This document shows positions 8,930-63,326 of a stretch of 64,000 nucleotides of DNA, piece after piece (within the stretch, counting starts at the first letter, position 1; each line of letters starts with the position of its first letter). Position numbers and translations under genes: made by a program. Origin of the DNA: Lingula anatina (lineage: Eukaryota; Animalia; Brachiopoda). Where the stretch lies: NCBI GenBank assembly GCA_051362555.1, contig CM120640.1, positions 2,914,001 to 2,978,000 on the forward strand, written 5' to 3'. The notes under the pieces were generated by a model. The model was given only the letters and a program-made list of their open reading frames with translations. It searched no databases and was not told the origin of the DNA.

Positions 8930-8982
<53 letters not shown>

Positions 8983-11327: not shown

Positions 11328-11398
<71 letters not shown>

Positions 11399-20300: not shown

Positions 20301-23300
20301 TGTTTGTTTGGTGTGGGATCCGCAACAGTGAAAAGAGAAATATAGACATTGGACAACTGAATTACCCTAAGACGACACCATCTCCATGTAAGAAACTACA
20401 ATATGAGTGAAAGCAAGGATCAAGAAATCGAGAAGCTGCGACTCGCACGTAGGGCACGGAAGGGCGCTGTTACACGGGTGATTGGGGTGATAGAGCGTGC
20501 TATAGCCGCGGATGAACCAAAGACTGTCGACGCAAACGTTAGTAAGTTGAAAGAAGTGTTTACAAGCTTTGAAAACTGTCATGATGCGTATCATTCTCTA
20601 CTTGAAACTGACTCTGACATTGAAACCAGTGAAGCTTGGTTTTCTCAGGTACAAGATAGCTACATAAGAGGTATTGGAGCAGGTGTTACTTACATGAAAA
20701 GTCTAAAACCAGAAAGTGAATCTGAACAATTATCTGAGCAAAAACTTATCAATTTACTTTCATTACCAAAAGCAGAAATAGACACATTTTCTGGAAATCC
20801 ATCTGATTTCTATAGCTTTTGTGCAGTATTTGACGAAACTATTGACAGCAAAATTGATGATAAAAGTGTCAAGTTGACCAGGTTATTGCAATACACGTCT
20901 GGAGCTGCCAAAGATGCAATAAAAAATTGTGTTCTAATTGGTGAAGCGGGTTATGATAAAGCACGGGAAATTTTGAAGGCCAGATTTGGTAATGATCACT
21001 TAGTAGCCCAGCGAATTATTAATGATCTCAAATCAGGCAAAACTGTAAATACGCCAGATGAACTACAAAAATTGGCAGATGATTTGCAAGTTGCTAGTGT
21101 CACTTTGGAAAAGTTAGACATGCTAAGTGAGGTTGAGAATCAAAAAACAATCTTAGATATTGTGAAAAGGTGTAGAGTAAAGATAGTAGACAAATGGAGA
21201 CATAAAGCACTCAAAATTAAAAGTGTTGAGAAAAGGTATCCCACATTCTCACAATTTGTAGATTTTGTGTCACAACAAGCAACAGAGGCCAATGACCCGG
21301 TCTATGGGGACAGTCCTGTATATCATCCTGGCCGTAAGTCATCTAGTACTTTTACTTATACCGCCCAAGGGCCCATTGACCCCCCTTTTGAACCCCCTGT
21401 TCAGCGTGATCTCCCTCCATGTGTTGTCTGTCATCAGCCGCATGATTTGTTTCATTGTGAGGTCTTCAAGGCAAAAAGCGTTCAAGCTCGTTTTGATATC
21501 ATAAAGCAAAATCGCTTATGTCACAATTGTTTTTCAGCTGGACATTTTGCTAAAGATTGTCGGAAAAATACTGTGTGTACTGTGCCAGGTTGTGGACGTA
21601 AGCACTCAAAGTTTATTCATTTCGGTCAAAGTGAGAAGTCGTCCTCCAAAACCGCAAGTAACGGCATTTCAGACACCGTGACGAGTGTTCACTCTAATTT
21701 CAATCATGTGAATCTGCCCATTGTGTCCGTCAGAGTAAACGGACACGTGATAGCTTCCGCTCTTTTGGACAATGGTTCTACTTCAACATTTATTTCTGAA
21801 CGTCTTGCAAATGAACTTTCTCTCAAACACTCACAAAGCTTGAACTATCAAATGAACACGTTGAGTTGTTCACAAAGTACAAAATCTCACGTTGTGTCAT
21901 TTCAGGTGTCACCTGTTCATGATTTGAATGTCTCCTATTGTTTATCAAATGTGTTAGTTATCCCACAAATTCGTGTGCGAGCGAATTCGCGAGTTAACAC
22001 TGATGCGTATCCGTATTTGAAAGATATACCTTTCAGTAACACAGGATCGGGTCACGCAGATATTATTATTGGAATGGACAACGCGCATTTGATCATGCCG
22101 TTAGAGACACGTTGCGATGAAAGCGGAAATTTGAAACTTTACGCGTCTCGTTCGCGCTTAGGTTGGACATTGAACGGCCCGTTGAATGAAAAGTTGGCAT
22201 CTGACATTTCAGTCAATTTTCTCTCGGTTGAAGAAAATATTGAGAATTTATGGCGACTCGAAAATGAGAGCGCGGTTTCTTTCTCGCAAGAAGATGGAGA
22301 AGTTTTGGCCCTGTGGGAATCGACTGTTAGTGAGGAGAACGGTCATTACGTGTTACCGATACCGTTGGAAAACAGGGTGTCCGAAATTTCCGTATAACAA
22401 GAACGTGGCGATCAACCGCTTACACAGTTTAGAACGTAAGCTGGAGAAAGACGGGTAATACGAAAAATATCACGACAACATATTGGATTTGATTTCCGAT
22501 AGTTATGTTGAGAAAGTCCCAGATGATGAAATTGATCTGCGCGACTGCACAGTATGGTATATTCCGCACAGACATGTTTTGAATCCCTCAAAACCTGAGA
22601 AATTGCGAGTTGTTTATGATTGTGCGTGCAAATGTCAGGGTGTTAGTCTAAATTCTCAGACCAAACAAGGCCCAGATTTCATAAACAAGCTGTTAGGTAT
22701 TTTGTTGCGATTTCGTCAACATAAATACGCGATAATGGCGGACATCAAGGCCATGTACTATCAAGTTATGGTGCCCGAATGCGATAGAAATTCGCTCAGA
22801 TTCTTATGGCGCGACGGGGAAAATCTTGTTCACTATCGCATGCGCGTCCATTTGTTTGGTGGAAAGTGGTCAGGGAGCGCAAGCTGTTATGCTCTAAGAC
22901 GCACAGTAAAAGACCATGAAGTCACAGAATTGATCAGAAACACCGTGTTGAAATCTTTTTATGTCGATGATTTGCTCAAATCCGTAAAAACTAGAAGAGG
23001 CTCGTGAGGTCATTGAAGGCACAAAACGCGCGGTGAGCCGCGGCGGATTCGATCTCACTCAATTCGTAGTAAATGACTTCGAATTAAATAAAGCTATTCC
23101 TGTTGATGACAGAGCTAAAGAGGTGAAAGAATTAGCGTTCGATTCTCATGCAAAAGCTCTCGGGATTAAATGGGAAGTCATGCCTGATTATTTCTATTAC
23201 ATCTTCAGACTCAAAGAAAGCGCGATTGTTACCAAGCGTATCATTCTCAGTAGAGTTGCCTCGATGTATGATCCTCTTGGATTGATATCTCCTGTCATCA

Positions 23301-25787
23301 CACGCGGTAAAATGATATTTCAAAAGGTAACGCGGTTGCGCGAAGGATGGGACACACCAGTGCCTGGTGACTTGAGTCTTGAATGGCAACGTTGGATTGA
23401 ATCTTTGAAAGATTTACACACTCTTCATTTTCCAAGGTGTGTTATTTCAGAGACGAGTTATGCTTCCGAGGTGCACATTTTTTGTGATGCTAGTGAAAAG
23501 GCTTACGGAGCTTGTGCATACCTTCGATCAGTCTGTAGTGATGGCAAAATCCGTATTGCGTTATTGGTAGCTAAAAGCAGATTAGCGCCTTTAAAGCAAG
23601 TCACTATACCGAGACTGGAACTTACTGCATGTGTTGTCGCTGTTGACCTTGATCGGTTAATCCGCGAAGAAATGGATGTATCTTTGTTGCCTACTACATT
23701 TTGGAGTGATAGTGAGGTCGCGTTGGCCTATATTGCAAATGAAACTACGCGTTTCAAAACGTTCGTGGCAAATAGGGTGTCTTACATAAGACAAAATACC
23801 AGTGTGCAACAATGGCGACGGATTCCCGGCAAATCCAATCCAGCCGATATTTTATCGCGAGGAAGCAATGTTGATGAAATGTCTGAAATTTGGATGAAGG
23901 GTCCCGCGTTTTTATCGGAATTCAGATCAAAATGGTCCTGCCCAAAGTCTTCTCGGGACATTTCTAATGATCTTGAAATCCACACATGCACTGTCAGTGA
24001 ACAACTTGAGGAAGCTGTATCCGAAAGAGATGTCTCACCTTTACAAAAGTTATGGAATCATTATTCCAGTTTTTACAAGCTTTGCAAAGCTGTGGCATGG
24101 CTTTTACGATTCAAAAGACATCTTCGTGGAAAAGACATCATAAAAACGAACGTAACGGCATCCGAGTTGAAAGAAGCTGAAGATTCCATTTTCAGAGCAG
24201 TCCAAAGCGAAGTGTTCGGTCGTGAAATTCAATCTTTGAGTGAGTCCGGCGTTATTTCGCGATCGAGTGCAATCTACAAGTTATCTCTTATTGTGAAGGA
24301 CGGGATTTTAGTTGTTGGCGGTCGGCTTATTCATTCATCATTAGCATGTAAACAGCCCCCCATTTTGCCCAGATCTCACAAAATTTGCTCTTCAATCATT
24401 CGCGACTTTCACGGTGGAGCACATATGGGAACTGAGTGGACCCATAGTATTGTCCGTCGGAAGTACTGGATAGTTGATGGAAGAAATTTGGTGAAAAAAA
24501 TCGTCAAAAACTGCATAATCTGCAAAAAGCTCTACGCGTTACCTATGTCGCAGAAAATGGCGGATTTGCCCGAGGACAGGTGTAGCGCAGGGGGGCTTCC
24601 TTTTGATATTGTCGGCATCGATATTTTCGGGCCCCTTGTTGTGAAAGTAGGACGTTCTGACGTAAAGCGTTATGGATGCATTTTTACTTGCTTCAAAACA
24701 CGGGCGTTGCATATTGAGGTGTTGGAAAATTTGAGTACAGACGCGTTTCTCAATGGGTTTTTCCGTTTTGTCGCGAGAAGAGGATGTCCTTCCAAACTTT
24801 ATAGTGACAATGCCACGAATTTTATTGGTGCTCAAAGTGAGCTAGCGCGAAGCTTACGTCAGCTCGACAAGAGTAAAATACTTAGGGAAACAAGACGCAG
24901 AGGCGTCGAGTGGAATTTTAACCCCCCACATGCATCCCATCATGGAGGGATCTGGGAACGCATGATAAGAACTGTCAGAAAAATACTGACAGCACTGTTG
25001 TCAAATGTGTCTACCAAGTCATTATCTGATTGGGTATTACAAACAATTTTATGTGAGTGCGAAAGCATTATAAATGGAAGACCCATGACAAAAGTCAGCA
25101 CTGACTCAAATGACTGTGACGCTCTTACTCCTAACCATCTGTTACTACTCCGTAACAATCCCTCTCTTCCTTGGGGTGATTTTGAAATAGCAGATGCGTA
25201 TAGACGGTTGTGGAGACATTGTCAATTTCTTGTTTCCCAGTTCTGGAAGCGATGGACTAGGGAATATTTATCTTTGCTTCAGTCTAGACCCAAGTGGCGG
25301 GAGATCAAGCGAAATTTAAAGAGGGGGGACCTTGTCCTTATTGTTGATGCTTCTATGCCCCGTGGTTCATGGCCTCTAGCTGTAGTAGAAAATGTTAAGA
25401 TTGGGAGAGATAGCTTAGTGCGTAGCGCGACGGTTCGTACTAAATCGTCTCGCTATAATAGACCCATCACAAAATTAGTATTTTTAGAGAGAGACTGTTA
25501 AGATATGTGTTATATTATTACAATATTGTTTAAGTGACATTGTTTAAACAATAAATTGTAAGTAAATTTGAATAAGAATAAGTAGACTATTAAGATATGT
25601 ATTATATTGTTACAATATTGTTTAAGTGGCATTGTTTAAACAATAAATTGTAAGTAAATTTGAATAAGAATAAGTAATATTGTTTATTTTTGTTTGTTTG
25701 TTTGTGACAGATAATATAGTGAATATGTGTTTGTTTGAGTATATACTGAGGTAGATAATTTTTTATTTTATTTTTTTTTATTTTTGT

Positions 25788-25826
<39 letters not shown>

Positions 25827-28800
25827 TTTTTTTGTTTAAGTGGGAGTGTTGTCGCTTATGACAACAATTTGCGTTTACAATCGTATCACTGGTCAGCTTT
25901 GTATTATTATGCAAATCATTTGCTCTGTATAAATACTGTATGCAGTAGTTCTGGGCGCGGCCACGTTGTATTTGACGAGCGAAGGCTCAGGTCGTCAAGT
26001 CTGAAGTTTTAGTAGGCAAAATTTGTGGATCAACACTGGACGGGAAAGCCACATTTCTCTGTACGTATTGTATTAAATTCTATTGTTAATCATTTGCACA
26101 ACATTTCCGTTTCTTATAATTAATTCATTATTTCTTTTTATATTTGTATTCAATTTATGTTATATTTGTGTATCTTGTATAATTAGTTTGGTATTTATCT
26201 TTCATTATTTTGTTATTTTTAGTTACACCATATCCATGTCAGTGTGCGTGAAATAAAGTGTGAACATTTCCCGTCGTTTGTTTGTTTGGTGTGGGATCCG
26301 CAACAATCTCCAACTCCAAGGACAAGACTGCCTGGCTAGGAAATATGTGACGTCACTCTCTCACCTATTCTGGGCACTGTCTAGAAAAAGGGTGCAGTCA
26401 CACTCTCACCTGTTCTGACCACAACAGCGGTCACTTTTCCTGCCCCGTAGTATCTGGTCTGGATGACCTGAGTGCCACAGAAAAGGGTGTATCTCTTGTG
26501 GACATCATCAGGAGAGAACACTTCATCTGAGTCAGGCTGGTTTGGAAGGGGAGTCTTGGTCACTGGGACACTCTCACCTACATAACAGATCAACAAACAT
26601 TCAGAATTCTGCACATATTCATTCAAAACTTAAACTACTGTTGGGATTAATAGTTAACATAATCAAAACTTGAGTCAAATTACAAACTAGAAAGAGCAAT
26701 TCTAAAATGTTATGTATACCATTACCATATTAATAATGAAAGTCATAAGAATGCAGACATAAGCCTAGGTTTTCAAAAAAAAAACAACTTCTGAACATTT
26801 ATCATGGGACCCAACACCTAACCCTGACGAATCTCAGGAACCATCAGAATTGAATTTTGAATTAAAAACATGGAATTCTGCTTTTCTGCAGAAAAGCTTA
26901 TATCTGAGAGTGTTATGTGTGTCTGTCTATATAAAGACACACACATACACAGATGGAGATGCCTGAAGAAATTCAAACCCCCCTCTCAATGAGTCAAGCA
27001 TGTGTGATTTTAAAGTAAAACTTCATCAACTTACATGTCCTTATAAAGCACACACTTGCTAATATTAAATTAATGCATATCTAAACTTGTAAGACAATAT
27101 TTTCTACCAAAATTAACATAACATAACAGCTGTGTACTGACCAGTCAACATGCTCTCATTGACAATACAGTTCCCAACAAGCAACACAGCATCACATGAC
27201 ATCATACAGCCATGTTGGGGGATCACAACCACATCTCCAGGGACCAGTTTGGAGGTTGGAAGCTCTTCAAAGACTAAAATTATAATGATCCTTTAGTTGT
27301 ATTGTTATTATACTGCTGGTGGTTGATCACCTTTTTTGTTTGAAATCACATACATATATTTTTACAATTTTAAATCAACATTTCATGAAAATTTTAAATT
27401 AAAAAAGGAAACAATAATACATTTCTTGAAGGAAGAGCATGTTATTGCCCAGTGTCTCCACAGGTAAAGATCTGCCCATGGCACATGCACATGACATGTC
27501 CTGATATATAAGTTGTCTGCACTGAACAAGTAAAATATTGTCATTAGACAAAAAGTATACATGAACAAAGATTGAACACACAAAGTCCACCAAAAGTTAG
27601 ACTTCCTTGCAGATTTATCAGGTATACATTAATATATAATCTGAAAAAGCTGGCCCCCTCAGCTTATTATTCAGCTAAATCATTAAAAAATCATCAACAA
27701 TACAGGAAATTCAGAAAGTATTCAGTGATACATTTGCTGTTACTTAAAAATATGAAAATTACCTCCATCTCCGCGAGATACTGTCATTACATTCACTTCA
27801 TGGGAGGCTACCATGTCTCTGAGGGTTATACTTTGCTGATAAAATATAAAAAAAGCTTTATTATATTTAGTGAACCAACAGTGTTTATGGAAAAGTTCTT
27901 AACAAATAACAAATAGATGTGAACCAAACACAGTTTGTGCCATTTTCAAGAAGACAATATACACTATCTTTGCTTGCGTTGTCCCAAAAACAAGTATAAT
28001 TAAAGACCATAGTACTAATTTGCAGGCTTAGTCTCAATATGCTTCCTTTGAAACAATTTGTCAAGCATCCTCGAGAAGTGAAGATAAATACTGCTTGCTA
28101 ATGATGTTAAAAGAGCACCAAATGAAATATTCAGATCACACCTGCCACACAGAAATGCTAACTGGAAATCAAGAACCAAATCAATGTTCCTGGCAAATTA
28201 CAACTATCCGGGTGCATGAGCTAAATATCATTCAGGTCTCTTTGGAGAGACTATTTCACTGTTGATTTTTCTCACTCTTCTGTGTTTTAACATCAAATAA
28301 TAAAAAAATGTTGTTTTTTTTTTTCATTTTTCTAAGAATAACACACAGATACTTTAAAACTCTCAGTTTGTCAATTTCACAAAAAAGTCAAAGATGATTA
28401 AGTCTTAATATGCACCCTTATGGAAATTCAACAAATGCAGTACATCCTGTAATTGTAACTCAATATCTGGCTCACCTTTTTTGTCTCATATAAAGACACA
28501 ACTATGGAGATCACAGATATGAGTATGATACAGCCAGCATAGTAATAGTAATCATCACACATCCATAGTATTACACTGAACAGTTGAAAGATATAGAAGG
28601 GATTCAGCACCTAGAAAAACAATATATATATATATATATATAAATATATATATATATATTTTTTTTTCCCCTAAAATTTTATCTTTCTTTATAAAGCACT
28701 CTCTCAAACACCGTAATGACTTAATCTTCAATGAACAATAATTATCAAAATTTCACATACATAATTTTATAATCGCAAAATCATATTTCTAAAGTGCTTT

Positions 28801-39530: not shown

Positions 39531-42500
39531 TTAGCAGTGAGTTATTTCATTCTGCTCATTGGGTATTTCCATATTATCTACCAAGGTGGCAGTATGGGAA
39601 GAACGTGGTTCAGTGTCGGCGCCATTACCCTCTGTATAAGTGAGAGACCGAAGACGCTTTATAGGTGACTTTAAGAAACTGCTTGGTGTTCCAATGCTGC
39701 TGACGCTGAAAGACCGCGGTTTCTTTTCTGGGAGTTCGACCTGTGCAAATTTATTTTCTTCTTGCTGTTTCTGCCGCGTACTTTGAAGTTCAACATATGT
39801 TTCATTTTCGTTATAAAAACCTAAGGCGTTTTTGTCTGTGGCATCGTTGCTTAGAAAACTGTCATCCAAATTGTTGTTGCTGGGGCTATCATCATCAGCT
39901 GCTCTGTTTTCCGTGGTTTCAGAGTTCACGGAAGCACTCTTCTCATGCAATGACGTCCGCAGGTAGGGCTGACTGCCGTCTTCTGATTCTTCATCATCGG
40001 ATGGGTGAACTTTTGATGGGTCCAAGCCAAGCGAACCAAACGCGGCCAGAGAAGCGAGCATTGTTAGAGACGCCCCACTGGATCGTCGTCTGAACCGATT
40101 CTCTGAAATAACGACAAGGACATGGTATCACCTTAAAAAACGTGCTATACAATGACACTTCACACAGGCGTTACACTATCTGATTTTTCTCCCAAGGCAC
40201 GCTTTTAAAAACTGAACCGAAAATGAATGTAGTGAATAAAGTTCAAAACGAAAATTGCCTTTGACCAAATGCGCCATCTTGGTCATTGCCCAAAGAGTTA
40301 GATATAAATTTGCAGTTATGTTATGCAGGAGCGGATCCATAGATATTTTCTAATCTTCCAAATTATCTTTGTAGATCCATTCCCCATTTTGACCATCTTC
40401 CGACAGAAAAAATTAAATACTAGTCAATGTAAACTTGAAAATCTGACCGTCCTCTGGAATACCCAAAAGATTTATATGATAGAAAACCAATGAAGTTCCG
40501 ACTCACCGTTGCCCACCTGCGGCTTACAGGCGTTTATGGCATCTTCTGGTGCTTCAAACTTTTTGCACAATCCACGTAAAGCGCGTATTTCTTGCTGTAA
40601 TGACACAAGTCATGGTGAAATGGGGTTTTCATAGTCTCTTGTGTAATAATGGTAATATATTTTTATTGTTGAGGCATAACGTTTCGACCCCTCTCCCCCC
40701 CCCCAAAAAAAAGGGGGGGTGATCACAAGACTGAATCGTCATGCCTCATGCAAATGTAGGTAGGAAACGATTTGTTTTTAATTTGTTTTTCGTTAATTGC
40801 TAAATTTGGCTACATAACAGAAAATTCTTAATTAAAGTTAATAACAGTTTGAAACAACGAAATTGTACAAAGGTGATATTCTGAACCGTGTTTGCTAATA
40901 TAGGCGACAGGTTACCTTGTGACGCTCGGCCTGTTTGATCAAGTCGGACACTCGTTTCAGCGCTTTTTTGCGGCCGCTCTTGACCATTTTCATTGCAATG
41001 TGGTCCTTTTCTTTCACAGTCATCACAAAACCTAGCAAATTGTAGAAGAACGAATCTACAGTTGAGACATAAAATGGGTGCATCTGCTAAAAAAGGAACT
41101 GAAATCCAGACACAGTAAAAATCAAATCAGTTGAGATTCCGATCGTGGTTTTACCAGGGTGAGGTAGAAATACATATACATGATATGCACATCATGCTGG
41201 GGTAGCGCTAACACTCGCCAATTTAGCCAAATGCTAAAACTGACTTAAATTGGTTAAAGAAAAAGGGCTTGATATGACATGTTTTAGCCAAATTATAACC
41301 ATTATGATAACAAATTGACAAAAATGTGGTGATTTGGCTAAGTGAAAAAAATTGCTAGCGCTACCCCAGACATGCCTTAGTGTAAGGTCGGGATGGTACA
41401 TGCGCTGGTGTTTTATCAATTAGGGATATACATGCACAGGATTAAAATATCAGAAATGATAATCTAATATCAAGCCAAAATATATGCAAACACAAGAAAA
41501 ATATCAATTAATACTGCCCCCATGTTTTCAGGGTTTATGAATCTACAAGTCAATTTTACTTTCTCATCACTGTTCAACTGCATAATGTAACACTCATTTC
41601 CGGAGCCCTGGTAAAAGTAATGTATTTAAAATGAAAATCAAAAATAAGAGGTCCAAGAATCATTTGACGTCACATAAGTGATTAGGCTTGTTCTACATTA
41701 AGTACTACGAACTGAAATTAATGGAAGCCCCCCGATTCGAGGAAGACCTCCTGTGAACTACAGGTGCCCTCACATGGTTAAAAAGTCCAATTAATTTTAG
41801 ATTTGCAATGTTTCCGGCATATCTTGCACTGGAAGTATATATTGACACCTTTATCGCGAAACAATAACCTAATGCTTACAATTCTTATTACCCTCCATGG
41901 TAAAAAATCACTTACTGTTCACAATTCTTATCACCCTCCATGGCACTAAGACAAGCACTAATACTGCTGCCTCCCCGGTATCGTCAGACCAAATACCTTT
42001 CAGAAACGCCAAGTCTAACACAAGTGAAATGGTGACCACGGCAGCATCAAATACCTATAATATATTCACATTTGATTACTGTTTTATCAGCCTTGTTAAC
42101 CAACTATGTTTGTTGCTATTTAGATAATCATTGCTGAGTTTACGTAATTAAAATATAATCTCTTAAGATTAAAAAAGCGAAATGGGTGAATATTTTTCTA
42201 CAATCTGCATTTTGGTTCTTAGATGTATCATTTGAATATGTCTTGTTTTAACATGGCAGCTAAGGTTCTCCCTAAACACCGAATTAAAAGACCAAGCACG
42301 AGGCTCACGAAGTCGAGAAAATTTCGTAAATCCCCATCCAGAAAATTATCAGGAAAACGCAACTGGATACTTGATTTTGAATAAATGGAGTCGACAGGGG
42401 GACTGGCGGACCCAGAATTCTGCTAGGGGGGGGAGGAGGGGGGCAGGATCAAAAGATTTTGGCGATTGAATAGAGTCAAATTGAAATTAGTAGACAAGAA

Positions 42501-45428
42501 CAATTAAATCATGATATATAGGGTACAGGGATGGAAATGTTCTTGGTTTGGTCTCATCTCTCTTTTTATACTGCTTTGTGAGAGGGAGGCAGCACGTGGC
42601 CCTCTTTGCCCCCCCCCCCCCCGCCCCTCCCCCTAGATCTGCTACTGAGAAGAGTAGAAAGCGCGGTATGAACCCCTTTTATAAGAACTTTTTCGCCAAA
42701 AATTCAACTTCTGTGCATTTTATTGATTAAATATCACTTACCTGAAACTTATACTGAAAGAATCTTCTTTTTGTTGCTATTATTCTCAAACAGTGCTGCA
42801 GGAAAAAAAAGGTAAATACGAGATTCTACATGTTTGCTTCCCACCAATGAAGGAAAATAGTATTTTCTAAATTGAGTACCTTTGAATCACACTCTGACTT
42901 AAATTTGGAAATTTTCAAAAAAAAAAAAAATTTGTCTATTGAAGAATTTTTAAGTGTAGTACTAACAAAGACTGCACAGGTTTAGAAAAACTGAACACTG
43001 TTATGGAAAGATAGGAAAACAACATACCACAAAAACAATACTTGACAGAATAAAAAGACTCAGCATATGCAATACGTGGCCGATTTCTTTCAAGACATGT
43101 TCGAGGGCATGGGGGCATTGGTCAGTATCACCAGGAAGTGAACAATTGCTAGGCTGCCCAGGGACTGCCTGCTTTGTGAGTGATCCTGTCAGTACATTCA
43201 GATACAAGACGCCGGGTTCTTCGGTTTGGGTCGGGGCGTGACTAACGGTGCTCTCAGACGTGGTTGGTCCCGGGCAGTGGATGTTGCTAATCTTCCGGAT
43301 TAAATCTGAGACGCTTTCTGTAGCTCTGCTTTTTAAGTGTGGAAACCTGTCATACAGAGCTTGACGAATGGAAGTCACGTAAGCCTTTGCTGCCTCCGTT
43401 TTTCCTGCAATACGGACAGTATATCGAGTATTGGTATTAGGGGCAAAAGGAATAACCTTCATATGTCATTTATTATTACCTCTTAACCAATGACTTTCGT
43501 TAGGTAATTTTTTTTCATCAAAATCATTCGTGGTTAAAATAAACACCCAATTAAACGAAAACACATGCATTTTTATTTGGCGGGCTACAGTTCTTACCAT
43601 TGGTAAGAGTTAAATCAATCAGCACTTCCCCTACTACACACGCAGCGTCCGCTATGGAAAGAATGCTGATAGCCATTAAAAGTGGGTAGCTGTACAGATA
43701 CTTCGTTAGTCTCTTCCTGGAAAATTAGTTCATATTATTACTGATGTCCCGTTTTTGGCCATGATGCTTGAAAATAGATCGAATTCAACGAAGCAAAGTA
43801 ATACAGCTATAACTCAATAAATTCGAATAAATTATCTATTAATAATCCCCCTCTCCAAAACTGTTTTGTTTGTGATGCTTCAAAATGTTTATTCACAAGA
43901 TTGAGAGATAATTCAGTTTTGTGTCAGGAAGTAAATTTTTGTGCGTGTTTGCAAACGAAGGGAAAATATTGGGGAAAATGAGACTTTGTAGATTTAAAGA
44001 AAGACCTTTTTTCAAAATTTTATCGTAGTATCAAATGAAATACTTTAAATATTGACATGTTTCTAGCATTAAAATCTTACAATTTTCAGGTGCTCCGTGC
44101 AAAGTCAACCTTAAATCCTGGCCAGTTTGGAACTGGCAATAATACTAGATAAATGGAGTGGCCATAAATTTTATTGTATGGTTTTTCAATCTGGGACTTC
44201 CCCAAATAGACCGTGATTTATCAATTAATAATCAACAAACGAAAAATTATGTCAGCTCTAGCTGTCATTTTGTTTGTCGACGTTTATTTCTTATATCCAT
44301 TTTGGTGTTTATCAATGGTTCGTTAAGGCCCATGTCTACACATGTATCGAAGTCCAGGGTTTTGTGACCTTGCACACCTGAAAATCCAATAGAATGAACA
44401 ACATGCTCCCCTGTTGCAGGTTTTGAGTGCTACTCATGTGTCATAAAATTTCTTAAACTTATCTTGAGAACATATTGTTGCTGTTAAACAAAGAAGGCGT
44501 TTTTCATTTTTTTTAATCCAAATACGGTGTGTTTTGTGATAGCGATGCTTGAAGTTATAAACTGCATTAGTTGTAAAAATCTCAAATTTTAAGATCACGG
44601 ATATTCATGATGTCATTGAATTTTGCTAGTTTTCAGTGTTTTTAGTAAATTTAACAGGTAAAATTAAAATTTAATATCAAAAGATAGGTTTATTATCGAA
44701 AACGCTATCAAAAATTCCGGTTTCACTGAGTATTTTGCGCCAACAAAGCGTCGACGTTACACCTTATTTATGTTATATATGTATTGCAATATATAAAATT
44801 TAAAACTGTATATTAATATTTTCTGATTAATAGTTAAAAATTTAATTCCAAACTCTTGGTCGAGGGCCGATGTGACATATTTCAGATGTGAAATTGTTCA
44901 TAACAATAAAGATGATTTGCTGGATTTCTGTGACATCAGAAAAAAATCAAAATGATTTTTGGCGGTGAAGAAAAGTTGAGTAATAGTTTTTTCAAAACCT
45001 TTAAAGCACAAAGGGCAAATCTTTAATCAAAACACCTTATGAGTCTAATATACCATGATTAAAACAGTTATACACGTACGTTTTAAAAATGCTTTATTTA
45101 TTGATATTCGGGAGCGTGCACGGAGGCAAGGTATGATAAAGCCTTTCAAATAAATGGACAAGTTAACAGTGGGCATTAAAGGAAACCCAACGAAGTCATT
45201 GTTTCACCTACGAGTCTAATTTTTATAGATTTTTTAGAATTTTCATAATTTACAGAATTATATACATATTATGACTATCGTTAATAAAATCCACTTAATT
45301 TTGAAGCAAACCTAGACCAGTTTCACCAAAAAATTAAACGACCTGGGAGGTAAAAAATATTAAGTCAACACTACAGATTACCTGAAAGATACTTTTGCCG
45401 CTTTCTCCCACGTTTTTTCTTTCTCCAT
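39531..45428 (-). CDS. Hv3: Voltage-gated proton channel family protein (voltage-sensor only, Hv3-like), 503 aa
   Basis: Eight in-phase GT/AG exons: 45382-45428 (ACCATGG start), 43598-43716 (S1 SILSIADAACVVGEVLID), 43028-43404 (long loop, then S2 LHMLSLFILSSIVFV), 42742-42795 (HCLRIIATKRRFFQYKFQ), 41916-42054 (S3 VFDAAVVTISLVLD, S4 LVPWRVIRIVN), 40916-41031, 40507-40594 (QEIRALRGLCKK, coiled-coil-like), 39531-40102. Total 1512 nt. Aligns by eye to human HVCN1 S1-S4. No pore domain and no phosphatase domain. Confidence 0.9.
41193..41374. mobile_element. Small MITE in an Hv intron
   Basis: Inverted ends ctggggtagcgcta..ttagccaaat / atttggctaa..tagcgctaccccag. Confidence 0.65.
42403..42646. mobile_element. 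Degenerate MITE of the CAG(T/G)GGCGGAT family
   Basis: ctggcggacccagaatt..G-run at the left and C-run..ctagatctgctactg at the right. Similar ends occur at 38125, 38942 and 40326. Confidence 0.45.
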
Positions 45429-46382
45429 GGTTACTGAATCCTGGCTTGAAATTATTTGCGTTTCCATTACACCCACATCCAGACTACCAACTACAGTAAT
45501 TGGCAACAAAATCCTCCCAAAGAGTTCCTTGGGTCATTTAAACGCCACTGCGCGTGCACGCTCTAACCATCAACTATACATTAGCATCAATAAAAGAGCA
45601 ATAAAAGTGATAAAACTTTATCACGTGCTGAAGTGGTAGGCTAAGAAAGGTGAGGGGAGGGGGCTTGGGGTCTTGGCTATTAACCAGCATTAACCAACGT
45701 TATGATCGGTGTGAATAGGAGCATGCAGGATAACGCCTGTTTGAATATGATTACAATGAAGAATACCAAAATGAGATAGAATTGAGATAGAATTCATGGA
45801 GAAAACACCTTCACACACACAAATCAAAACCTTGAAATAAATTAAGACAATAATTTCATTAAGTTGACAACTACAGCCACAATTGTACTAGGACCCACTT
45901 AATGGGTTTGCAGGGCCCTAGAATTTGGGAAAGTGTAACCCACATACATGGAAACACTGTACACATAGATCACATCAAATTTATTTCATACTGGACAGAC
46001 AATTATTGGCAATATTCTTACATGTATATGGCATACAACAGATACCGTTTAAAAAATCATCCAGGACACCTCTACTATCTACATGTAGTTGATATATTAG
46101 GCCCTACTGATAGAACGGTAACGAGCGGAATAAGGTCCACAATTACTTCAACTCAACAATAAACAGGCTTCCAAAACCCACATGATTGTTGTTAGACGTC
46201 TGAGCATACAGAAATTACCCATTTTTCTTCACTCCCAGGATTTAAGGGATGGCTAGAGTAGAAAAATGGTGTTTAAATATGTTGGATATTGTGCTATATA
46301 ACTTGCCCTAAACCTTAATGAACCGATGATTTTCCTGAAAATTACGTTAAAAAGTTATTTTAAGGGACCAGCCGACTTTTAG

Positions 46383-47435: not shown

Positions 47436-50400
47436 ATGGCGGACGGCGTGGACATCGATTTGTATGCAGATAATTTAGAGGATGATTTCCATCAAGTAAA
47501 CATTTTGCATAATCTTTTCACACTTTGATGCATAAGTCATTTACTTTCTAAAGCATTAGGTTGGGAAAACCATTTATCAAAGTATTGCATAAAACGTGCA
47601 ATGGCATTGTTATCACCCTCCGAATGAGGGATGTCTCTGATTTTATATTGTGAAAACAAAGTGATTTTATTGAAATTGAAACCGTATGTGTGATGATATA
47701 TATGTATTTGATAGGTCATTGTAAATATTGCTGTTATATGTCTGTGCAAGTGTTAAATTTGCAGTGCAGTGTAGTAACCCGACGGAAAGAGTCCGGAGAA
47801 GCCATTATTTTGGATCTCGTCTCATTTCGTGTATTGTCAGCTCAGCTTACTGCATTCCCACAGATTTAGATCGATCTATCTGGATCGACCTAACTCCCTA
47901 GGGGTTCACTCTAAATTGCTATCAGCCGAGCACGCACAGAAGTTAATTAACCCCTTACAGCTTTCAGTAGGCGGGACAGACATTTAAGCCGGCTAAGCTG
48001 ACAGTAATCTAGTGAGACTCCCCAAGGGAATAAATTTAAGAAGTAGAAATGTATTGTTTTAATTTTCTGTTTAGGATGCCGACTTCAATGGTGGCGGAGT
48101 CGACCTCTATGATGATGTCATAACATCACATTCAACCTCACAGGATCATTCCACAGAAGAGGTGAGCATGACTACAGGGGGTTTTAGAAACCAACTTAAT
48201 ACAATATCGAAAGCAAAGTACTTTTTGTACAATATACCTTATGACGCTGCAGTTCTGTTTGAATAAAGTGGAAACTGTCAAAAACTTCAACTTTTAAGTA
48301 TTTTTTAAAACTTTTTTACTGCAGCATCACCCTTGAACTAGAGGAAATTCACCCATAGTTGGCACTGAACTTGAATGCACTTAAATCTTTCTGTTGGTAG
48401 AAAATCACTGTTGGTACAGTATCACTAATGTTTAATAAACTTTTTTTTTTCGTACAGCAGCACCACCCTCAGTCAGATGGCCAAGAGACCAAACCTCGTG
48501 TGCCTGCAGGGACAACAGCTTACACAGGGAAAAGAGTGTCACTTTATGTGGGCAATATGACCTGGGTAAGAGAATACAGAGAGTTCTCTCTTTCAACAGT
48601 GAACAGTTTAGGGTACATTATTGAACAATTCTAATTAAGACTTCATTCTCGGTGCGGAGATGATACAGTTAAGAGTAGGATTCCCCTTAAATGACCATTT
48701 TTGCTAAGTGTTACCTAAATAAAAAATCACATAAGTAATTATCTATATCTATGTTTGCTTCTTCATTTGCAGTGGACCACAGATCAAGATCTGACTGATT
48801 GTATCACAAGTTTAGGAATCACAGACCTCCTGGAAATTAAATTTTATGAAAACAGAGCTAATGGACAGTCTAAAGGGTATGTATGTTTCTTCATCTTAAC
48901 TTGGAACATTAAGACCGAAATGTTATTTGTTTCACTGATTGTTTGTTTTATATATTGCAGCTGAAAATGTTATAAGTAGTGACTCAATATTTAAAAAAAT
49001 TCCTCTGATTTTCACTGAGTGAACTTTCTATGTGATTGCGTGTACAATCTGTGTATAAGCCTGCCATTTCATTCCTCAGGTTTGCTGTGGTAACTTTTGG
49101 GTCCGACTCATCTTCACGTATAGTAATGGAGAAGCTCCCCAGGAAGGACCTCCACGGCCAGGCCCCCGTGGTGACCCACTGCAATAAACACAACCTGTCT
49201 CAGTTTGAGAACCAGTCGCGGAAACCAGATGCTTCTCCTAGCCAGGACAGAGACAGGGACAGAGACAGAAATGACAACAGAGACCGAGATCGAGACAGAG
49301 ATAGGGACAGAGGTAAGTGGACAGAGTCAGACTGGGACTGGGATAGTAGATTGGTGTGCATATTTGACAAGGTGCTACACTTGTACCATTTTTTTATTTC
49401 CATTTATATTGAAATTTGATTTTTTCTCAGCGTTGTTCTGCATTAAGCTGCTCTCACACCCCCTGTCACTCAGTTTCTTATTTTTTTAACAAACCAAAAT
49501 CATGTCTGTTCACTTCAGGAAAAATGTTTGCGTTTATTCCTCAGGAATCACTTCTTAAGAATCATGGCCTAATAAAGCATGGTAACTTGATTAGAACTGA
49601 AGACTATGAAATTTGTAATGTCTAGGTTACCAGGATAACCGAGGTCCTCCAGGCAGGAATCACCCCCAGGGAGGTGGTGGGCGCGGGCGTGGCAACCCCT
49701 ACCCACCCAGGGGGCAGAGGCCAGCAGGACCCCCAGGTCCCCAGGGACCACCCCCTGGAGCTCCAGGAGGACCACCACCACCACATTTTGGAGGTAAGTT
49801 TCCTTTGTGAACAACAGGTGTCTTCTATACAGAAGAAAGATGACTGGGAGATAATAGCAGTGAAGAGAATGTGATGTGTAAGCTTTTGGAAGTAATAATT
49901 AGGAATAACCCAGTCAATAAATCTAGATTTTGTTGCACAAGATTATTGATTTCCATACATTAATTTCTGTTAATTGTATACATTGAAAATGTTACATTGT
50001 TATTGTATTTGTTAAATATTTATTTTACTGTGTGAAAAAGAAATATAGTTATATTCTGCAACAAGTGGAAAGACCACTTATGGATGAGAAAAATTGTTCA
50101 GTTGAATTTGAAATCTTTCAGGCCCCCCACGCCCTGGCCCCCCTGGTCCCCAGGGCCCCCCTCCCCCAGGAATGCAGGGTGGACCTCCCCATAGACAACA
50201 AGGGCCTCCACCAGGAATGGTAAACATTGTAGACTTACTTGCATATTTAATGATTTTTTATCTTTGAAGGATTTTTTTCCAATAAAAAAAAAAACAAAAA
50301 AAAAAAAAAAAACAACAACAGAATAGCAGTGATAAATGCAAATCTATATATCAGACATTTTAAAACTACCACCCTTTGTATACCTATGCATGTGTACTGC

Positions 50401-53400
50401 AGGTTCCCCGTGGTCCCCACCCAGGGGGAATGAGAGGCCCAACCCCACAAGACCCCAGAGCTGGCCCACCACGGCCCGAGTGGGACAGACCCCCTGGTAA
50501 GTTACAAAGCATCAATTTTTCAAATCTCTTGTGAAGATCTGATGTGCTGTTTGTTTCACTAGGTATGCTAAGTGACCATTTTCACTGCTGTCTAAAACTT
50601 GAGAACAAAATAAAAAAAGATATGCAGAGAGGAGTTCTCTATCAATTTTTATGGACAGACACTTTGAATGTCTGTTTATCACGATGTTGGTCCTTTAATG
50701 TCACTTTTCAAAGCATCCCTGTAGCTGCCAAACCATATTTTTATTTTGTTTTTAATTGTACCACCAGCGTTAGCGCTGGCGGTACACATGGTTTCGGTCC
50801 CGTCCGGATCGTTCCGCCGGCTCCGCCGGACGGCTACCGTTACCGCTTCTCCTCCTAGACGGTAAGGGCCCCTGTACCCATCTCATGGATTTAGGTCACC
50901 TATAATCTCAACTCGTTCCACGTAAAATTTGGGCTTTGTCGGTATTGGGGTCTGGGTGTGGCACTCATTGCAATGCACCCTTGTCTAAAAATGGCAAAAT
51001 TAAATGCTAATTATCTACCCTACGGAAGGAGTTATGGGAAAAATTTCTATAGACGGCTTTCCAAAAGTCATATGTGTAGATTTCAAATATACCCTTGGAT
51101 TTGACCTTTGACCTCTACTTCAAGGTCAAATGGGCCAAAATTTTCAAAAAAATGAAATTTTTTACGAAAAAAAATTTTTTTTGCCCTGTTATTCAGACAC
51201 CACACAGACTTAACCAATAATATTATTGGAAAGTGTTACCCTTCAGGTCATCTTTCATCTCCATGAATTTGGGGTCAATCGGTGCATTTTCACGGGAGTA
51301 GCGGCCATAAGATACCGAAACTGAAAACTGTTTCTAATTCGGGAACCGTTAATGCTAGAGACCCATTCTTTTTTGCATTTTGTAGAGCATGTAAAGCCCA
51401 ACACTGGAGGTGGTCTCGGTTTTTTTGTATTCCATACGGTTTTCGAGTTACGCTCTATCAAAAAGTACATATTGGTGGTAAAAGCAAAATGTGCAGTACG
51501 GTAATGGATAATAAATTTTGAACTCTGGAAAAATAAAACATAAGGCTTGGCAAAGCAGACAACTTGTGTTCAAAAATGACATTATTTCATCAAATTTGAA
51601 CTTCTGAAACTTCAGAGCACCTCCTATTTCAAGAATTTTGACCAAAATGACATTTTCTTTATTTTAATTAATTTTTTCTGTATGAAATTTAAGGCACATT
51701 ATGGTAATTCCAAAATTATAACATCTAGTCCCTTTTATCTCCAAAACTGGCAGAGATAGGTCCATAGTTACTATTGAACTTGAAAAGGAAGTCATATACT
51801 GGCAATCTAAATGTGACCTTAAAATTGACCTTTGACCTACTTTACACCATGAACTGAATTTTGCAAATTTTTCTTTCCTTTTATCTCCAAAACTGGCAGA
51901 GATAGGTCCGTAGTTACTATTGAACTTGAATAGGAAGTCATATACTGGCAATCTATATGTGACATTAAAATTGACCTTTGACCTACTTTTCACCATGAAC
52001 TGAATTTTGCAAATTTTGCTTTCCTTTTATCTCCAAAACTGGCAGAGATAGGTCCGAAGTTACTATTGAACTTGAATAGGAAGTCATATACTGGCAATCT
52101 AAATGTGACCTTAAAATTGACCTTTGACCTACTTTACACCATGAACTGAATTTTGCAAATTTTTCTTTCCTTTTATCTCCAAAACTGGCAGAGATAGGTC
52201 CGTAGTTACTATTGAACTTGAATAGGAAGTCATATACTGGCAATCTATATGTGACCTTAAAGTTGACCTTTGACCTACTTTTCACCATAAACTGAACTTT
52301 GCAAAATTTGCTTCCCTTTTATCTCCAAAACTGGCAGAGATAGGTCCATAGTTACTATTGAAGTTGAATAGGAAGTCATATACTGGCAATCTAAATGTGA
52401 CCTTAAAATTGACCTTTGACCTACTTTACACCATGAACTGAATTTTGCAAATTTTGCTTTCCTTTTATCTCCAAAACTGGCTGAGATAGGTCCATAGTTA
52501 CAATTGAACTTGAATAGGAAGTCATATACTGGCAATCTAAATGTGACCTTAAAATTGACCTTTGACGTACTTTTCACCATAAACTGAACTTTGCAAATTT
52601 TGCTTCCCTTTTATCTCCAAAACTGGTAAAGATAGGTCCATAGTTACTATTGAACTTGAATAGAAAGTCATATACTGGCAATCTAAATGTGACCTTGAAA
52701 TTGACCTTTGACCTACTTTTCACCATGAACTGAATTTTGCAAATTTTGCTTCCCTTTTATCTCCAAAACTGGCTGAGATAGGTCCATAGTTACTATTGAA
52801 GTTGAATAGGAAGTCCTATACTGGCAATCTAAGTGTGACCTTTAAAATGACCTTTGACCTACTTATTATCATGAACTGAACTCTGCTAATTTCTTTCTCT
52901 TTTAACTTCAAACTTGACAGAGATAGGTCCATAGTTACTCTTGAACTTGAATAGGAAGTCATATACTGGCAATTTACTGTGACCTTGAAATTGACCCTTG
53001 ACCTACCTTACCAAGAACTTAAATTTGATTGTACCATATATATTTTTTGCAATAGTTTAAAAATTCTTGTTGATTGCATTTTTACAGCTTGTCAAGCACA
53101 AAACTGGTGGCTGTGTCCCTTATTTTGTGTATGTGGGGGTCTATACGAATGCGCTTGCTCCAGCTGGTGGTACAATATTTGGAGGCGGTATCGCCTCTCT
53201 GATCCTCTAGTTTAATGAGCAGTTATGTTATTTTTTTTTTAAAAGGGTTCCTTTCGAAAATCAGCATGATTGGATTATATTTGCAAAAGTTAGCTTTATG
53301 TATTTGATTATTTATTTATTTATTTATTATTGCTGTTTGGTGCCTGTATATTTTCACATTTTGCTGTCTAGTTCATGTGTTGAACTCGATGTTTTTCATT

Positions 53401-60300: not shown

Positions 60301-62561
60301 TGGAAACCCAGTCATAGAAACTTATCAATGTACATGGCAGGCCTTTGGCTAAAATTTCTAGGTTACTAGCCCTTTATGCAACTAGTATTTAAAAGTGGGG
60401 TAGTGTTATTTAAATTTTAGAATGTTTATAAGCTTAGAAAGTGTCTTTTTGGAAGGGTGGGTGCCTTGGTTTGTGCCTAACAATGCACACTGTATGTATG
60501 TACTAAGACCGTAAATCATTGCAAGCAAAATACTCCCATTAAGACTGCCTTTATCCATTATCAGGAAATAATTTTTGTGACACAGTTCATAAGTAAAAAT
60601 ATTGTGAATTTTTTATAAATATATTTAGCAATCATTATTCATTGTTATTTATTTAATCTTGTTTGTTGAAACATATTGTTTTATCATTATTTTGATGAGA
60701 TGTGCTCTAATCTGTACTCATGATGTCAATTCAGTTTTCCTCATCAATATCTGTTTCTGTTAATCTAATCTAGAAAGTGATGTTAATAACATTACATTTT
60801 TTCAATCTGCACATCTTATCAGTTCCATACAGTTGTCATTAACAGCCTCTTGAAAACTGGTCACTGAGTGTGTAAGTAAAGTTGCCATGACAACTATATG
60901 GAATGATGCATTAAAAGGGGTGGTCATGAAATTCCTTTCAAAGTTCACCATGTTATCAACATTTATTAATGCAATAAAATATGTTGGGTTTTGTCTTTAA
61001 TTTCATTCCCTTGCACAAAATGTTTGCCAAAAAAAAAAAAAAAAAAATATCTGCTTGAGGTGAGCCAATCATCTTGCTATTGCAATGATATGAACATTTT
61101 CACTCCACAGCTCATATGTGGCTTTTGAATAATGAAAACAGTTTATTGAGCTGTAGGTGGTACATGTATTTGCCCACTCTATACTCTGCAGTTTTTCTTT
61201 TTCAAATAGAAAAAAGTAAAAGAATATGATTCATTATGCCTTAAGACAAAAACATTTTTCCTCGTCTGATTGTATTTTCAAACAAATATTTTCCATTGTA
61301 ATTTTAGCTCCATTTCAAGCAGCCCCAGGACCTGTTCCTCCCCCTGGCCACCACCCACCCCCAGCTGGACATCCTGGTGGACCCCCTGGACATCTGGGAC
61401 CCCCTGGACACCCAGGGATGATGCCCCCTAGAATGGGACCCCCTCAGAGTAAGTGCTGTGAACCCCTTATCACAGGGTTTGTGCAGTCATATGTTAAAGA
61501 TGCATACAAAGTCAATTTTTTGTCACAGAAACCAACCAAATGCCAGCATATAGTTTCAAGTAGTATAACTAAGAGAATTACCAAAAGGCATTGTATAATT
61601 TTACCCGGAAATGATGTTTGAACGGATTTTTCTGCTGGCATTCTAAGCTGTATGTCAATGGGGCAGGAAAGTAGGTCACGAAAGTAGGTTAAATTTACAA
61701 CCATAAATTTAAAGAAAGGAGCCATCTAAAGGTCTTTTATGGCTCATCGAGTGATCTATTCAGTTTTTCCCTTGGCATGTCGAATTTATTTGAGTCATAT
61801 AAGAATCTAGTAGAAGTGGTTTACATGTGTTACTAGGAATCCAGGCTCCACCAATGTTCGGTTCGTATGTACCTTTAAGGAGTAAAAGTTATACTTAATT
61901 TTATTTCCATTTTTTCTGTGATGCTTTAAAATGACTTCATTTCTCTGTAAAATTACTGTAATTTTTCTCAAAAACTTTCTGCATTATTCCTTGGCTTGCA
62001 TATGTTATATATTTTTTATCAATATTGTGTGGTAAGCTGCATTGTCCACTTAAAGGTCGTTGCTTGTGGATGTGGAGATAAATCTATCGTAACATTTCAT
62101 TGGCAATTGTCTTCCTATGTTACATTTCAGTTGAATTTAAGGTAGACTTGCACAGTGTTATGTTCACCACATTTTAATTCTTGTTCCAAATTCATGGAAT
62201 ATTTCTTAGCAAACTTTTGCTTATGATCAACCACAGGTACTAGGGGTGATATTAGGTAATGGTTTTGAGGTCAGTCTGAAACACAAAGCTGCCACATCTT
62301 GCACAGCTTTATGCATGTGATCACACGTAAGGGGAAGCACTGTCATAATGTTTTTTTTCCCTTTCAGATGCTCCTCCACATGCTGGCCCTCCGCCCCCCG
62401 GACACCCAGGGGCACCCCCTCCAGGACACCCCTACTCAGGGCACCCCCCACCAGGACAAGGGGGCCCTCCACCAGGCCATTCAGCCCCCCCGGCACCACA
62501 TGTGAACCCAGCCTTCTTCCCCCCAGGACAGGCACCGCCCCACCCACAGGGAGGACCTGCG
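47436..62561 (+). CDS. CPSF6: Cleavage and polyadenylation specificity factor 6 (CFIm68); 5' portion, continues beyond the right edge
   Basis: Exons: 47436-47495 ([12 protein letters not shown]), 48075-48161 (VDLYDDVI), 48458-48565 (NAGNAG acceptor; SLYVGNMTW), 48773-48876 ([22 protein letters not shown]), 49080-49312 (RRM end plus RD run), 49626-49793, 50122-50219, 50403-50496, 54952-55014 and 59990-60034 (candidate cassette exons), 61308-61448, 62368-62561 ([12 protein letters not shown]). All are in phase. The RRM and PHVNPAFF are hallmarks of CPSF6/7. Confidence 0.93.
47853..48026. mobile_element. MITE-like family B relative in CPSF6 intron 1
   Basis: Inverted copy of about 46420-46591. 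Confidence 0.7.
50755..53212 (-). mobile_element. Helentron-type non-autonomous element (HINE/DINE-1-like) with an internal satellite array
   Basis: Perfect 14-bp subterminal inverted repeats attgtaccaccagc (50755-50768) / gctggtggtacaat (53163-53176). GC hairpin at 50758-50785, ctagtt terminus, T-rich flanks. No coding capacity. Confidence 0.75.
51731..53020. repeat. 146-bp tandem repeat, about 9 units
   Basis: ccttttatctccaaaactgg recurs at 51731, 51877, 52023, 52169, 52315, 52461, 52607 and 52753, with a degenerate copy near 52899. Confidence 0.97.
53726..54372. mobile_element. Tc1/mariner relic, internally deleted and rearranged
   Basis: TA-flanked ends cagtgtgacc / ggtcaccctg. Decayed transposase motifs WFQQD (+ strand, about 54230) and HSPDL-P-DFFLW-FLKDKVY (- strand, about 54045-54110). 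Confidence 0.75.
55027..55232 (+). repeat. G-rich minisatellite (5 units of about 43-45 bp) with G-quadruplex potential
   Basis: ggggtggaggaagtggtgacaggggtgga repeated five times with G-runs of variable length. Confidence 0.92.
55258..55543. mobile_element. MITE with TIRs of at least 19 bp
   Basis: tgttaaccctgacattttg / caaaatgtcagggttaaca, with CAYTG..CAGTG-like ends. Confidence 0.75.
56914..57102. mobile_element. Degenerate MITE with AGGGTT..AATCCTG ends (related end about 19020-19128)
   Basis: Repeated cttgaa motifs and tgtatgaatcctg / tgtacgaaccctg termini. Confidence 0.4.
59442..59705. mobile_element. Palindromic MITE
   Basis: ggggtccagtttcattaacactggatagc / gctatccagtgttgatgaaactgggccc, with internal tatcc/ggata repeats. 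Confidence 0.8.
60095..60313. mobile_element. MITE-like family B, inverted copy of 15645-15897
   Basis: Reverse-complement similarity along most of its length, with an internal deletion. Confidence 0.75.
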
Positions 62562-62573
62562 GTAAGGAGAGAC

Positions 62574-62607
<34 letters not shown>

Positions 62608-62694
62608 TTTACCTGTGTATGTGTGCGAGAGAGAAAAGTTTTTGTGTGTATGTGTGCAAAAGAGAGAGAGAGAGTGTGTGTGTGTGTGTGTGTG
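62574..62694. repeat. Compound (GT)n/(GA)n microsatellite just after a CPSF6 donor
   Basis: Alternating tgtg and agag tracts. Confidence 0.85.
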
Positions 62695-63326
62695 CGTAAA
62701 AGCGAGAAATTGTGTGTGGTTAAAATTCAGTTTAGAATTTTTCTGTACATCTGAAAATATAGTATAATTGTGTGATTACAAGAACTCTGTTGTTCATGAG
62801 ATGGATATTAATTACTGTAATGACTTGGATTTTTTCAATGAGGGGAAAATGATATATCTGAAAGATTAATAATTTTTGCCAATTCATAAGATCATTACCA
62901 TTCCTGGAGATCTCTACATACACATGTAGGTTATTCTTTGTTCCCTGCCTGACATGACAAACATAGCTCTCTCACAGGTGGTTGTGACATGTTACAGCAT
63001 GCCTTTGTTATAACAACAGTATAAATAGGAATTTCAGAATTCGATGTTATTGTGATTATTTTGTTGCTGTAAAACAGTTGGAAAAGCTCTTCAGGGTTGC
63101 TAAGCAATGTGACAAAAATTTAACTATGATTCTCATAAGTGTGCATGTATTGTATAATGAAAATAGAAATTGATAGTTTTAAAACTGTGCCCTGAAACAC
63201 TTAATGGTGATGCAATCTAGGAAGTACTGAATGCTTTTTTATTTTTTACTTGATTTGAGAGCTTATGTTACCCTAAGGAGTAATTTTTAAAACTTGTATG
63301 ATGGCAATATCAAAAGTAAAGGTAAA

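Follow-up and report, generated by a model that had tools for sequence, protein, structure and literature searches.

Can a voltage sensor that has lost several of the charged and aromatic residues of human Hv1 still work as a proton channel, and would such a channel close at rest or leak? This question is raised by a gene in a 64,000-nucleotide (nt) stretch of the brachiopod Lingula anatina (GCA_051362555.1, CM120640.1, positions 2,914,001-2,978,000, forward; below referred to as the window, whose coordinates are used throughout). The original prediction, made from the sequence alone, described a hidden proton channel of the Hv family, encoded by eight exons, with 503 amino acids (aa) and a heavily degenerate voltage sensor. 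Here we show that the Lingula Hv3 gene is real and intact, and we weigh what its unusual residues would mean for proton conduction.

The Lingula Hv3 gene and its splice model

The predicted model was reproduced in full: eight exons on the minus strand (45428-39531; coding sequence 1512 nt, 503 aa) are joined across seven introns of 193-1665 nt, all with GT-AG borders, and the exon chain equals the RefSeq gene LOC106156217 (XP_013386797.1 / XM_013531343). An in-frame ATG at 45467, 13 codons upstream of the ATG at 45428, agrees with the RefSeq start and lengthens the protein to 516 aa. Further upstream, the reading frame is closed by a TGA at 45536, for which reason the 548-aa extension of the database protein P0003 was rejected here. 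At the other end, an AATAAA/ATTAAA hexamer is found at ~39447, past the stop of exon 8. When exon 5 was used as the query, a single protein was returned, XP_013386797.1 (P0001, 517 aa), which is 100% identical across this exon. Apart from 13 N-terminal aa, the window protein departs from it at 19 substituted positions and through a single 1-residue gap; all of these lie in the N-terminus, the S1-S2 loop or the tail. Since 0 of the 19 substitutions between these two Lingula sequences hit the 224-aa core (S1 plus S2-to-coiled-coil; p ~1.4e-5 if evenly spread), purifying selection is suggested to act on the core residues, including those in question. The S2-S4 sequence is identical in three database proteins (P0001-P0003), of which P0002 (LOC106154732, 260 aa) comes from a second, nearly identical RefSeq Lingula locus that stops just past S4 and represents either a truncated copy or a scaffold of the other allele.

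The gene is therefore not hidden. Besides the RefSeq model, Fig. S1 of a 2023 survey (PMC10377628) prints XM_013531343 in full among four Lingula putative Hv channels. The same survey counts four Hv genes in Brachiopoda, defines the unconventional Hv3 type by an xPWRxxR motif in S4 and by the large size of both the S1-S2 loop and the intracellular domains, and records its occurrence in Brachiopoda. Because both gene and subfamily were already published, the locus adds little as a discovery; functional data were not found in the literature. The label 'uncharacterized' can be explained by the Ion_trans match, which on the full protein stays below the Pfam cut-off (E 0.012); Pfam searches with individual exons gave nothing relevant.

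All residues that the original prediction had called kept or lost relative to human HVCN1 were borne out by the alignment to 5OQK, the family alignment and the codons. Human numbering, as counted on the printed HVCN1 sequence, is used below to name alignment slots. Human Hv1 (5OQK; mouse chimera 3WKV) shares with the Lingula protein an architecture consisting of a voltage-sensor domain (VSD) only, as well as (503-aa numbering first) D39=D112, E46=E119, D50=D123, H168=H140, D202=D174 and D213=D185 in S1-S3, and W238=W207, R239=R208, R242=R211 and N245=N214 in S4. Human Hv1 differs in having RxWRxxR, V109, F150, E153, H168 and E171, and its S1-S2 loop is short. The Lingula protein has I178 for F150, V181 for E153, H182 for I154, Q199 for E171 and V236-P237 for R205-L206. 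Three further changes had been overlooked, namely V109 to Ser (S36), K157 to Arg and human H168 to Tyr, and the V177 and V178 slots are intact.

The S2 register was ungapped against 5OQK (E 2.9e-8), and also on two profiles from which the query had been left out, with the posterior highest along S2. Asp39 pairs with the S1 Asp of both 5OQK and 3WKV, and a sequence comparison with solved structures gave human and mouse Hv1 alone at E < 0.001 (2 of 5 listed). Between exons 3 and 5, 123 stop-free in-frame splice versions were scored on the two profiles, and the present model ranked first on both (92.5 versus 88.0 bits and 66.7 versus 64.6). One of the 123 placed an acid in the E153 slot, via skipping of exon 4. 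A shifted register or an alternative splicing that would restore the S2 Phe or Glu was thus rejected on the profile scores and the ungapped alignments, and the return of these residues in a proper alignment, with which the predicted degeneracy would have fallen, did not occur.

An error of gene prediction or sequencing, or a decaying gene, is a highly improbable source of the S2 changes. It is true that V181, H182 and Q199 lie exactly at exon edges, and that no exon reads were present in any of the four RNA runs that were aligned (of nine listed same-label runs; 6-25% of each); as these runs were aligned without a control gene in the stretch, this null result says nothing on expression. However, an artefact would have to account for the same S2-S4 sequence in P0001-P0003, for the best score among 123 splicings and for a core free of substitutions. 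In addition, the gene models of relatives (e.g. P0082, P0085 and P0121) that are short of exactly the 18-aa segment of exon 4 imply shared intron positions, and point to conserved positions in relatives for both introns flanking this exon. The RNA reads fell only on two intronic interspersed repeats, which attract many reads, 90-95% alike, from other loci.

Hydropathy peaks, AlphaFold2 helices and VIA-align all agreed on a four-helix VSD without an S5-S6 pore. AlphaFold2 (96-sequence alignment; mean predicted local distance difference test score, pLDDT, 67) produced four confident helices and a partly helical S1-S2 loop of ~105 aa, with a pLDDT of ~85-97 across S1 and S2-S4 and of 73 at the S3-S4 linker block. 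From S4 a helix runs on for ~50 residues (continuous 238-309 in P0001 numbering) and is followed by a low-confidence tail. When VIA-align was applied to Foldseek's list, the VSD of Ci-VSP reached Z 13.4 (root-mean-square deviation 3.4 over 131 residues, model 24-263); Foldseek itself returned no match for the full-length model at E 0.001 or better. A coiled coil after S4 may be formed by the long predicted helix; the TRIM_CC domain gave a weak match (E 0.074). The S4 motif V-P-W-R-V-I-R conforms to xPWRxxR, and the ~105-aa loop together with a C-terminal part of ~250 aa agrees with the large loop and large domains of Hv3. By the absence of the first S4 arginine (R1) and a length of 503-516 aa, the protein falls outside the conventional Hv1, Hv2 and Hv4 types (RxWRxxR/K, 200-250 aa).

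A phylogeny (IQ-TREE, LG+F+G4; 60 rows picked by hand out of 135, with 182 columns; supports are bipartition values) placed the Lingula protein inside a single xPW clade (ultrafast bootstrap, UFBoot, 95), which was also one clade in a FastTree of all 135 rows (0.969). Motif, architecture and tree together supported the assignment to an xPW-type (Hv3) voltage-sensor-only protein. Within this clade, clade A (UFBoot 90) comprises Lingula, nemerteans, Owenia and two molluscan groups, including a subgroup of Lingula, Owenia and molluscs (UFBoot 92), and the sister clade B (UFBoot 100) contains the Aplysia channel AcHv3 and LOC101857936. As Lingula and AcHv3 thus fall on either side of this split, the gene is, on these sequences, a member of the Hv3 group and not a direct AcHv3 orthologue. 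The tree contained no sequence identified as a vertebrate TMEM266; P0044 (LOC106155662, named TMEM266 by RefSeq in some isoforms) is another Lingula gene, placed outside the xPW clade, with a core identity of 30%.

The nearest relatives are those of clade A, i.e. Lineus P0008, Tubulanus P0013, Owenia P0009, P0018, P0022, P0024 and P0041, Octopus P0007 and the oyster proteins P0004 and P0006, with core identities of 40-48% for those compared. Three Owenia proteins share E171Q with Lingula; clade A relatives differ from it in that E153 is kept, position 119 is mostly Gln, and 154 is Lys in the nemertean and Owenia proteins. The S4 proline is present in the nemerteans P0008 and P0013 and in the five Owenia (annelid) proteins. 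PMC10377628 calls this proline missing in Annelida and Nemertea, although its supplement prints a Notospermus protein that has it. The proline in nemerteans and Owenia makes it older than that survey proposes.

S2 residues across the xPW family

The original prediction regarded the S2 changes as additional to those of Hv3. To place them, we aligned the best 150 of 358 HMMER hits (50%-identity representatives) plus P0004 and P0005, giving 152 rows (92 xPW, 39 RxW and 21 other). Residue counts exclude the query and gaps, and since the rows are related by descent they do not represent independent trials. Phe at slot 150 occurs in 0 of 82 xPW rows (Leu 66, Met 13, Ile 2, Val 1) but in 39 of 39 RxW rows. 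Glu is found at 153 in 63/82 xPW versus 39/39 RxW rows, and at 171 in 70/85 xPW rows (Gln 11) versus 38/39, while Val at 109 is found in 7/71 xPW rows (Asn 37) versus 32/35. The residues linked to selectivity are preserved across the xPW homologues (D112 68/72, W207 91/91, R208 88/91, R211 91/91). Hence the loss of F150 is not extra at all but common to the whole family, AcHv3 with its Leu included, and the losses of E153 and E171 recur without being universal; the novelty that depended on Hv3 orthologues having other residues has gone for F150 and is reduced for the two acids. Nearly all the 'degenerate' residues recur in relatives, and in this respect the gene is largely ordinary. Two of the four gasket positions (109 and 150) differ family-wide in xPW proteins and could account for the leak of AcHv3. 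This residue pattern was not found in the main texts of PMC10377628 and PMC10911540 or in the other Hv literature searched; the supplementary alignment figures of these two papers may already show the S2 residues, and each of the two announces a more complete survey of molluscs.

Of the 77 xPW rows in which S2 and the linker are filled, the acid at 153 is missing from 16, and eight combine all three changes (no Phe150, hydrophobic 153, Gln 171). Two of the eight are fragments (P0145 and the poorly aligned P0147), and the six that remain are Aplysia LOC101857936 (P0056) with Lymnaea P0035 and Plakobranchus P0114, which form one group, plus Haliotis P0026, Mytilus P0059 and Solemya P0075. Because all six belong to clade B, they and Lingula reached this state independently; they differ from Lingula in having Leu or Thr at 154 instead of His. 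On a trait tree (FastTree, 88 rows, excluding gene models with a broken S2 as well as the trait columns), at least nine changes were required for loss of the acid at 153 and at least seven for that at 171, and only two for loss of Phe150. A correlated loss of E153 and E171 was rejected: of six independent pairs, ~2 changed the same way, 0 the opposite way and 4 were unchanged (median p 0.5). Gln may be the usual substitute at 171 because the exon 4 donor follows this codon, and Glu, Gln and Lys codons can end in AG.

The sole private feature is His182, as no other row has a His in slots 151-156 (1/152). A polar or charged residue occupies slot 154 in 64/80 xPW versus 0/39 RxW rows, and in the seven nemertean and Owenia relatives it is Lys; three extra proteins from a word-index search, read by eye, also have no His there. 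Word-index searches by name turned up no second brachiopod or phoronid orthologue. Placed on an ideal helix, His182 is offset by 40 degrees from slot 150 and points to the conserved side. It seems decidedly unlikely that the protein is an essentially voltage-independent proton leak gated by cytosolic pH through this residue, an idea that would build on the loss of R1, E153, E171 and the inner pH sensor His168 of human Hv1 combined with a newly acquired His that would face the pore from the inner end of S2. Most likely, to judge from the relatives, His182 replaces their Lys, so that Glu-Lys became Val-His in a charge-neutral swap rather than a new pH switch. This is the simplest reading since the local net charge stays near zero.

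Predicted proton conduction and gating

The Aplysia precedent cited in the original prediction proved to be right: AcHv3 (Aplysia californica LOC101855857, P0040) has an LPWRxxR motif and is a proton-selective leak with a shallow voltage dependence of ~60 mV per e-fold, for which a gasket breach or the weak voltage dependence itself was suggested as the cause, without residues being named in the main text (PMC10911540). AcHv3 and the Lingula protein have in common the xPWRxxR S4, the S1 Asp, a large S1-S2 loop, a long tail, a coiled coil after S4 (predicted for Lingula), the absence of Phe at 150 and a polar residue at 109 (AcHv3 Thr). They differ in that AcHv3 is larger (980 aa with a 299-aa loop, versus 516 aa and ~105 aa), has 36% identity over 109 core columns, and keeps E153, K157 and E171.

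By this analogy leak-like behaviour is plausible, and we assign a probability of roughly 55% to the reading that the Lingula protein is a dimeric, weakly voltage-dependent and partly always-open proton leak. Dimerisation would occur via the predicted C-terminal coiled coil. Proton conduction is predicted from the intact D112/W207/R208/R211 set common to AcHv3; the selectivity pair of S1 Asp39 and S4 Arg239/Arg242 is retained, as are Trp238 and Asn245. The likeliest source of the shallow and leaky gating is the family-wide S4 change, i.e. the loss of R1 plus the S4 proline, with the polar gasket residue at 109 perhaps helping; the human mutant R205W leaks (PMC11853527). Among the S2 changes, only E153V is predicted to have a large effect. 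In human or Ciona Hv1, neutral mutants of E153 move gating by -55 to -117 mV, with a pH-gradient slope that stays at 42-45 mV (PMC4969798), and loss of this counter-charge may therefore bias the protein further towards the open state. Human E164A/E171A shifts by only -7 mV (PMC4969798), and F150I is predicted to be near neutral, so that F150I and E171Q should add little. F150I was rejected as the cause of a leak, as human F150I gates near wild type (-8 mV; half-activation voltage 53.7 versus 61.7 mV, slope 11.9 versus 11.6); for human F150L, the usual Hv3 residue, this voltage is 26.9 mV (PMC9646954). Of the replacements measured at this position in human Hv1, Ile ranks with the mildest.

Several observations weigh against such an AcHv3-like leak. 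Mutation of human R1 to Ala was reported without a leak (PMC10911540), and Ciona E201A and E201G, which alter the E153 slot, gave no current in oocytes (PMC4969798). The gasket argument is weak for the Lingula protein since, besides the near-normal F150I, the single mutants V109A, V109T and F150A do not leak, as opposed to the V109A/F150A double mutant, whose leak amounts to 0.16 of the open conductance (PMC6754559). AcHv3 belongs to the sister clade, and no electrophysiological recordings were found for any clade A member, nor for the six triple-change proteins of clade B. Because AcHv3 keeps both E153 and E171, we found no measured natural Hv that is devoid of the two. Finally, the four RNA runs, aligned without a positive control, had no reads on the exons.

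The mutant data may also be taken to favour a tightly closing, negatively shifted voltage-gated proton channel, which would open below the proton reversal potential and carry inward current like AcHv2, with no leak in the closed state. Ile at 150 keeps the gasket hydrophobic and hardly alters human gating, V177 and V178 are intact, and the neutral E153 mutants shift negatively yet hold their pH-gradient slope. We nevertheless consider tight closure unlikely, as the sole xPW channel measured is shallow and leaky, and the Lingula S4 likewise contains two arginines and a proline.

A nonconducting or near-silent voltage sensor with a TMEM266-like role is about equally doubtful. Here, loss of E153 and E171 would break the inner proton path, and the protein would serve as a sensor, scaffold or partner subunit via its loop and long tail. 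Both inner acids are indeed gone together, Ciona E201A and E201G carry no current, many clade A members, for which recordings were not found, also have Gln at E119, and PMC10377628 considers that some molluscan duplicates may have ceased being proton channels. On the other hand, human E153A and E164A/E171A still conduct (PMC4969798), and D112, E119, D174, D185, W207, R208, R211 and N214 are all kept.

The value of the Lingula protein is that of a good natural test construct and not of a new kind of channel. The xPW family appears to have dropped the 'universal' S2 Phe once and E153 many times, and thereby offers a natural experiment on which VSD charges are needed once R1 is gone. The 109 and 150 slots make testable the gasket breach proposed for the AcHv3 leak in PMC10911540. 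Moreover, the Lingula protein and Aplysia LOC101857936 are natural Hv proteins devoid of E153 and E171, with which it can be asked whether the inner counter-charges are needed for conduction and for pH-gradient gating.

Feature positions and neighbouring genes

Table 1. Features of the window (residues in 503-aa numbering)
Feature	Position	Strand	Content
Coding exon 1	45382..45467	-	ATG 45467 (RefSeq-like, 516 aa) and ATG 45428 (original prediction, 503 aa)
Exon 2	43598..43716	-	S0/S1; Ser36 (V109 slot) 43658-43656; selectivity Asp39 43649-43647; Glu46; Asp50
Exon 3	43028..43404	-	Extracellular S1-S2 loop (~105 aa) and most of S2; His168 (H140); Ile178 (F150 slot) 43039-43037; Val181 (E153 slot), final codon
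Exon 4	42742..42795	-	54 nt; His182, first codon; Arg185 (K157 slot); S2-S3 linker; Gln199 (E171 slot), last codon, CAG ahead of donor
Exon 5	41916..42054	-	S3 (Asp202, Asp213); S4 motif V-P-W-R-x-x-R-x-x-N at 41946-41917
Direct repeat	41859-41943		42 nt, 83% identical; S4-coding end of exon 5 with donor region, copied just within intron 5 and decayed
Intronic interspersed repeats	~40340-40470 and ~41190-41370		Attract RNA reads from other loci
Exon 6	40916..41031	-	S4 end into long predicted coiled-coil helix
Exon 7	40507..40594	-	Long helix terminates
Exon 8	39531..40102	-	Acidic C-terminal tail, mostly low-confidence (likely disordered); stop TAA
P-type ATPase exons	~7800-26630	-	Weak E1-E2_ATPase match at 26381-26626
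Bel/Pao-type retrotransposon	20361-25501	+	Three long frames: DUF1759, aspartyl protease, Peptidase_A17, integrase zinc finger, DUF5641
Exons with RRM-like start	48400-50500 and 61200-62770	+	RD repeats, Pro-rich stretches
Tandem repeats	11282-12007		~23-codon units
Tandem repeats	51664-52610		~100-codon units

The neighbouring P-type ATPase gene, which from its motifs we take to be P5B/ATP13A-like, apparently holds the Bel/Pao element, a long terminal repeat retrotransposon, within one of its introns. Two groups of exons on the plus strand, which start like an RNA recognition motif (RRM), presumably resemble CPSF6; Pfam searches with two single exons found nothing. The two tandem repeats appear as repetitive open reading frames.

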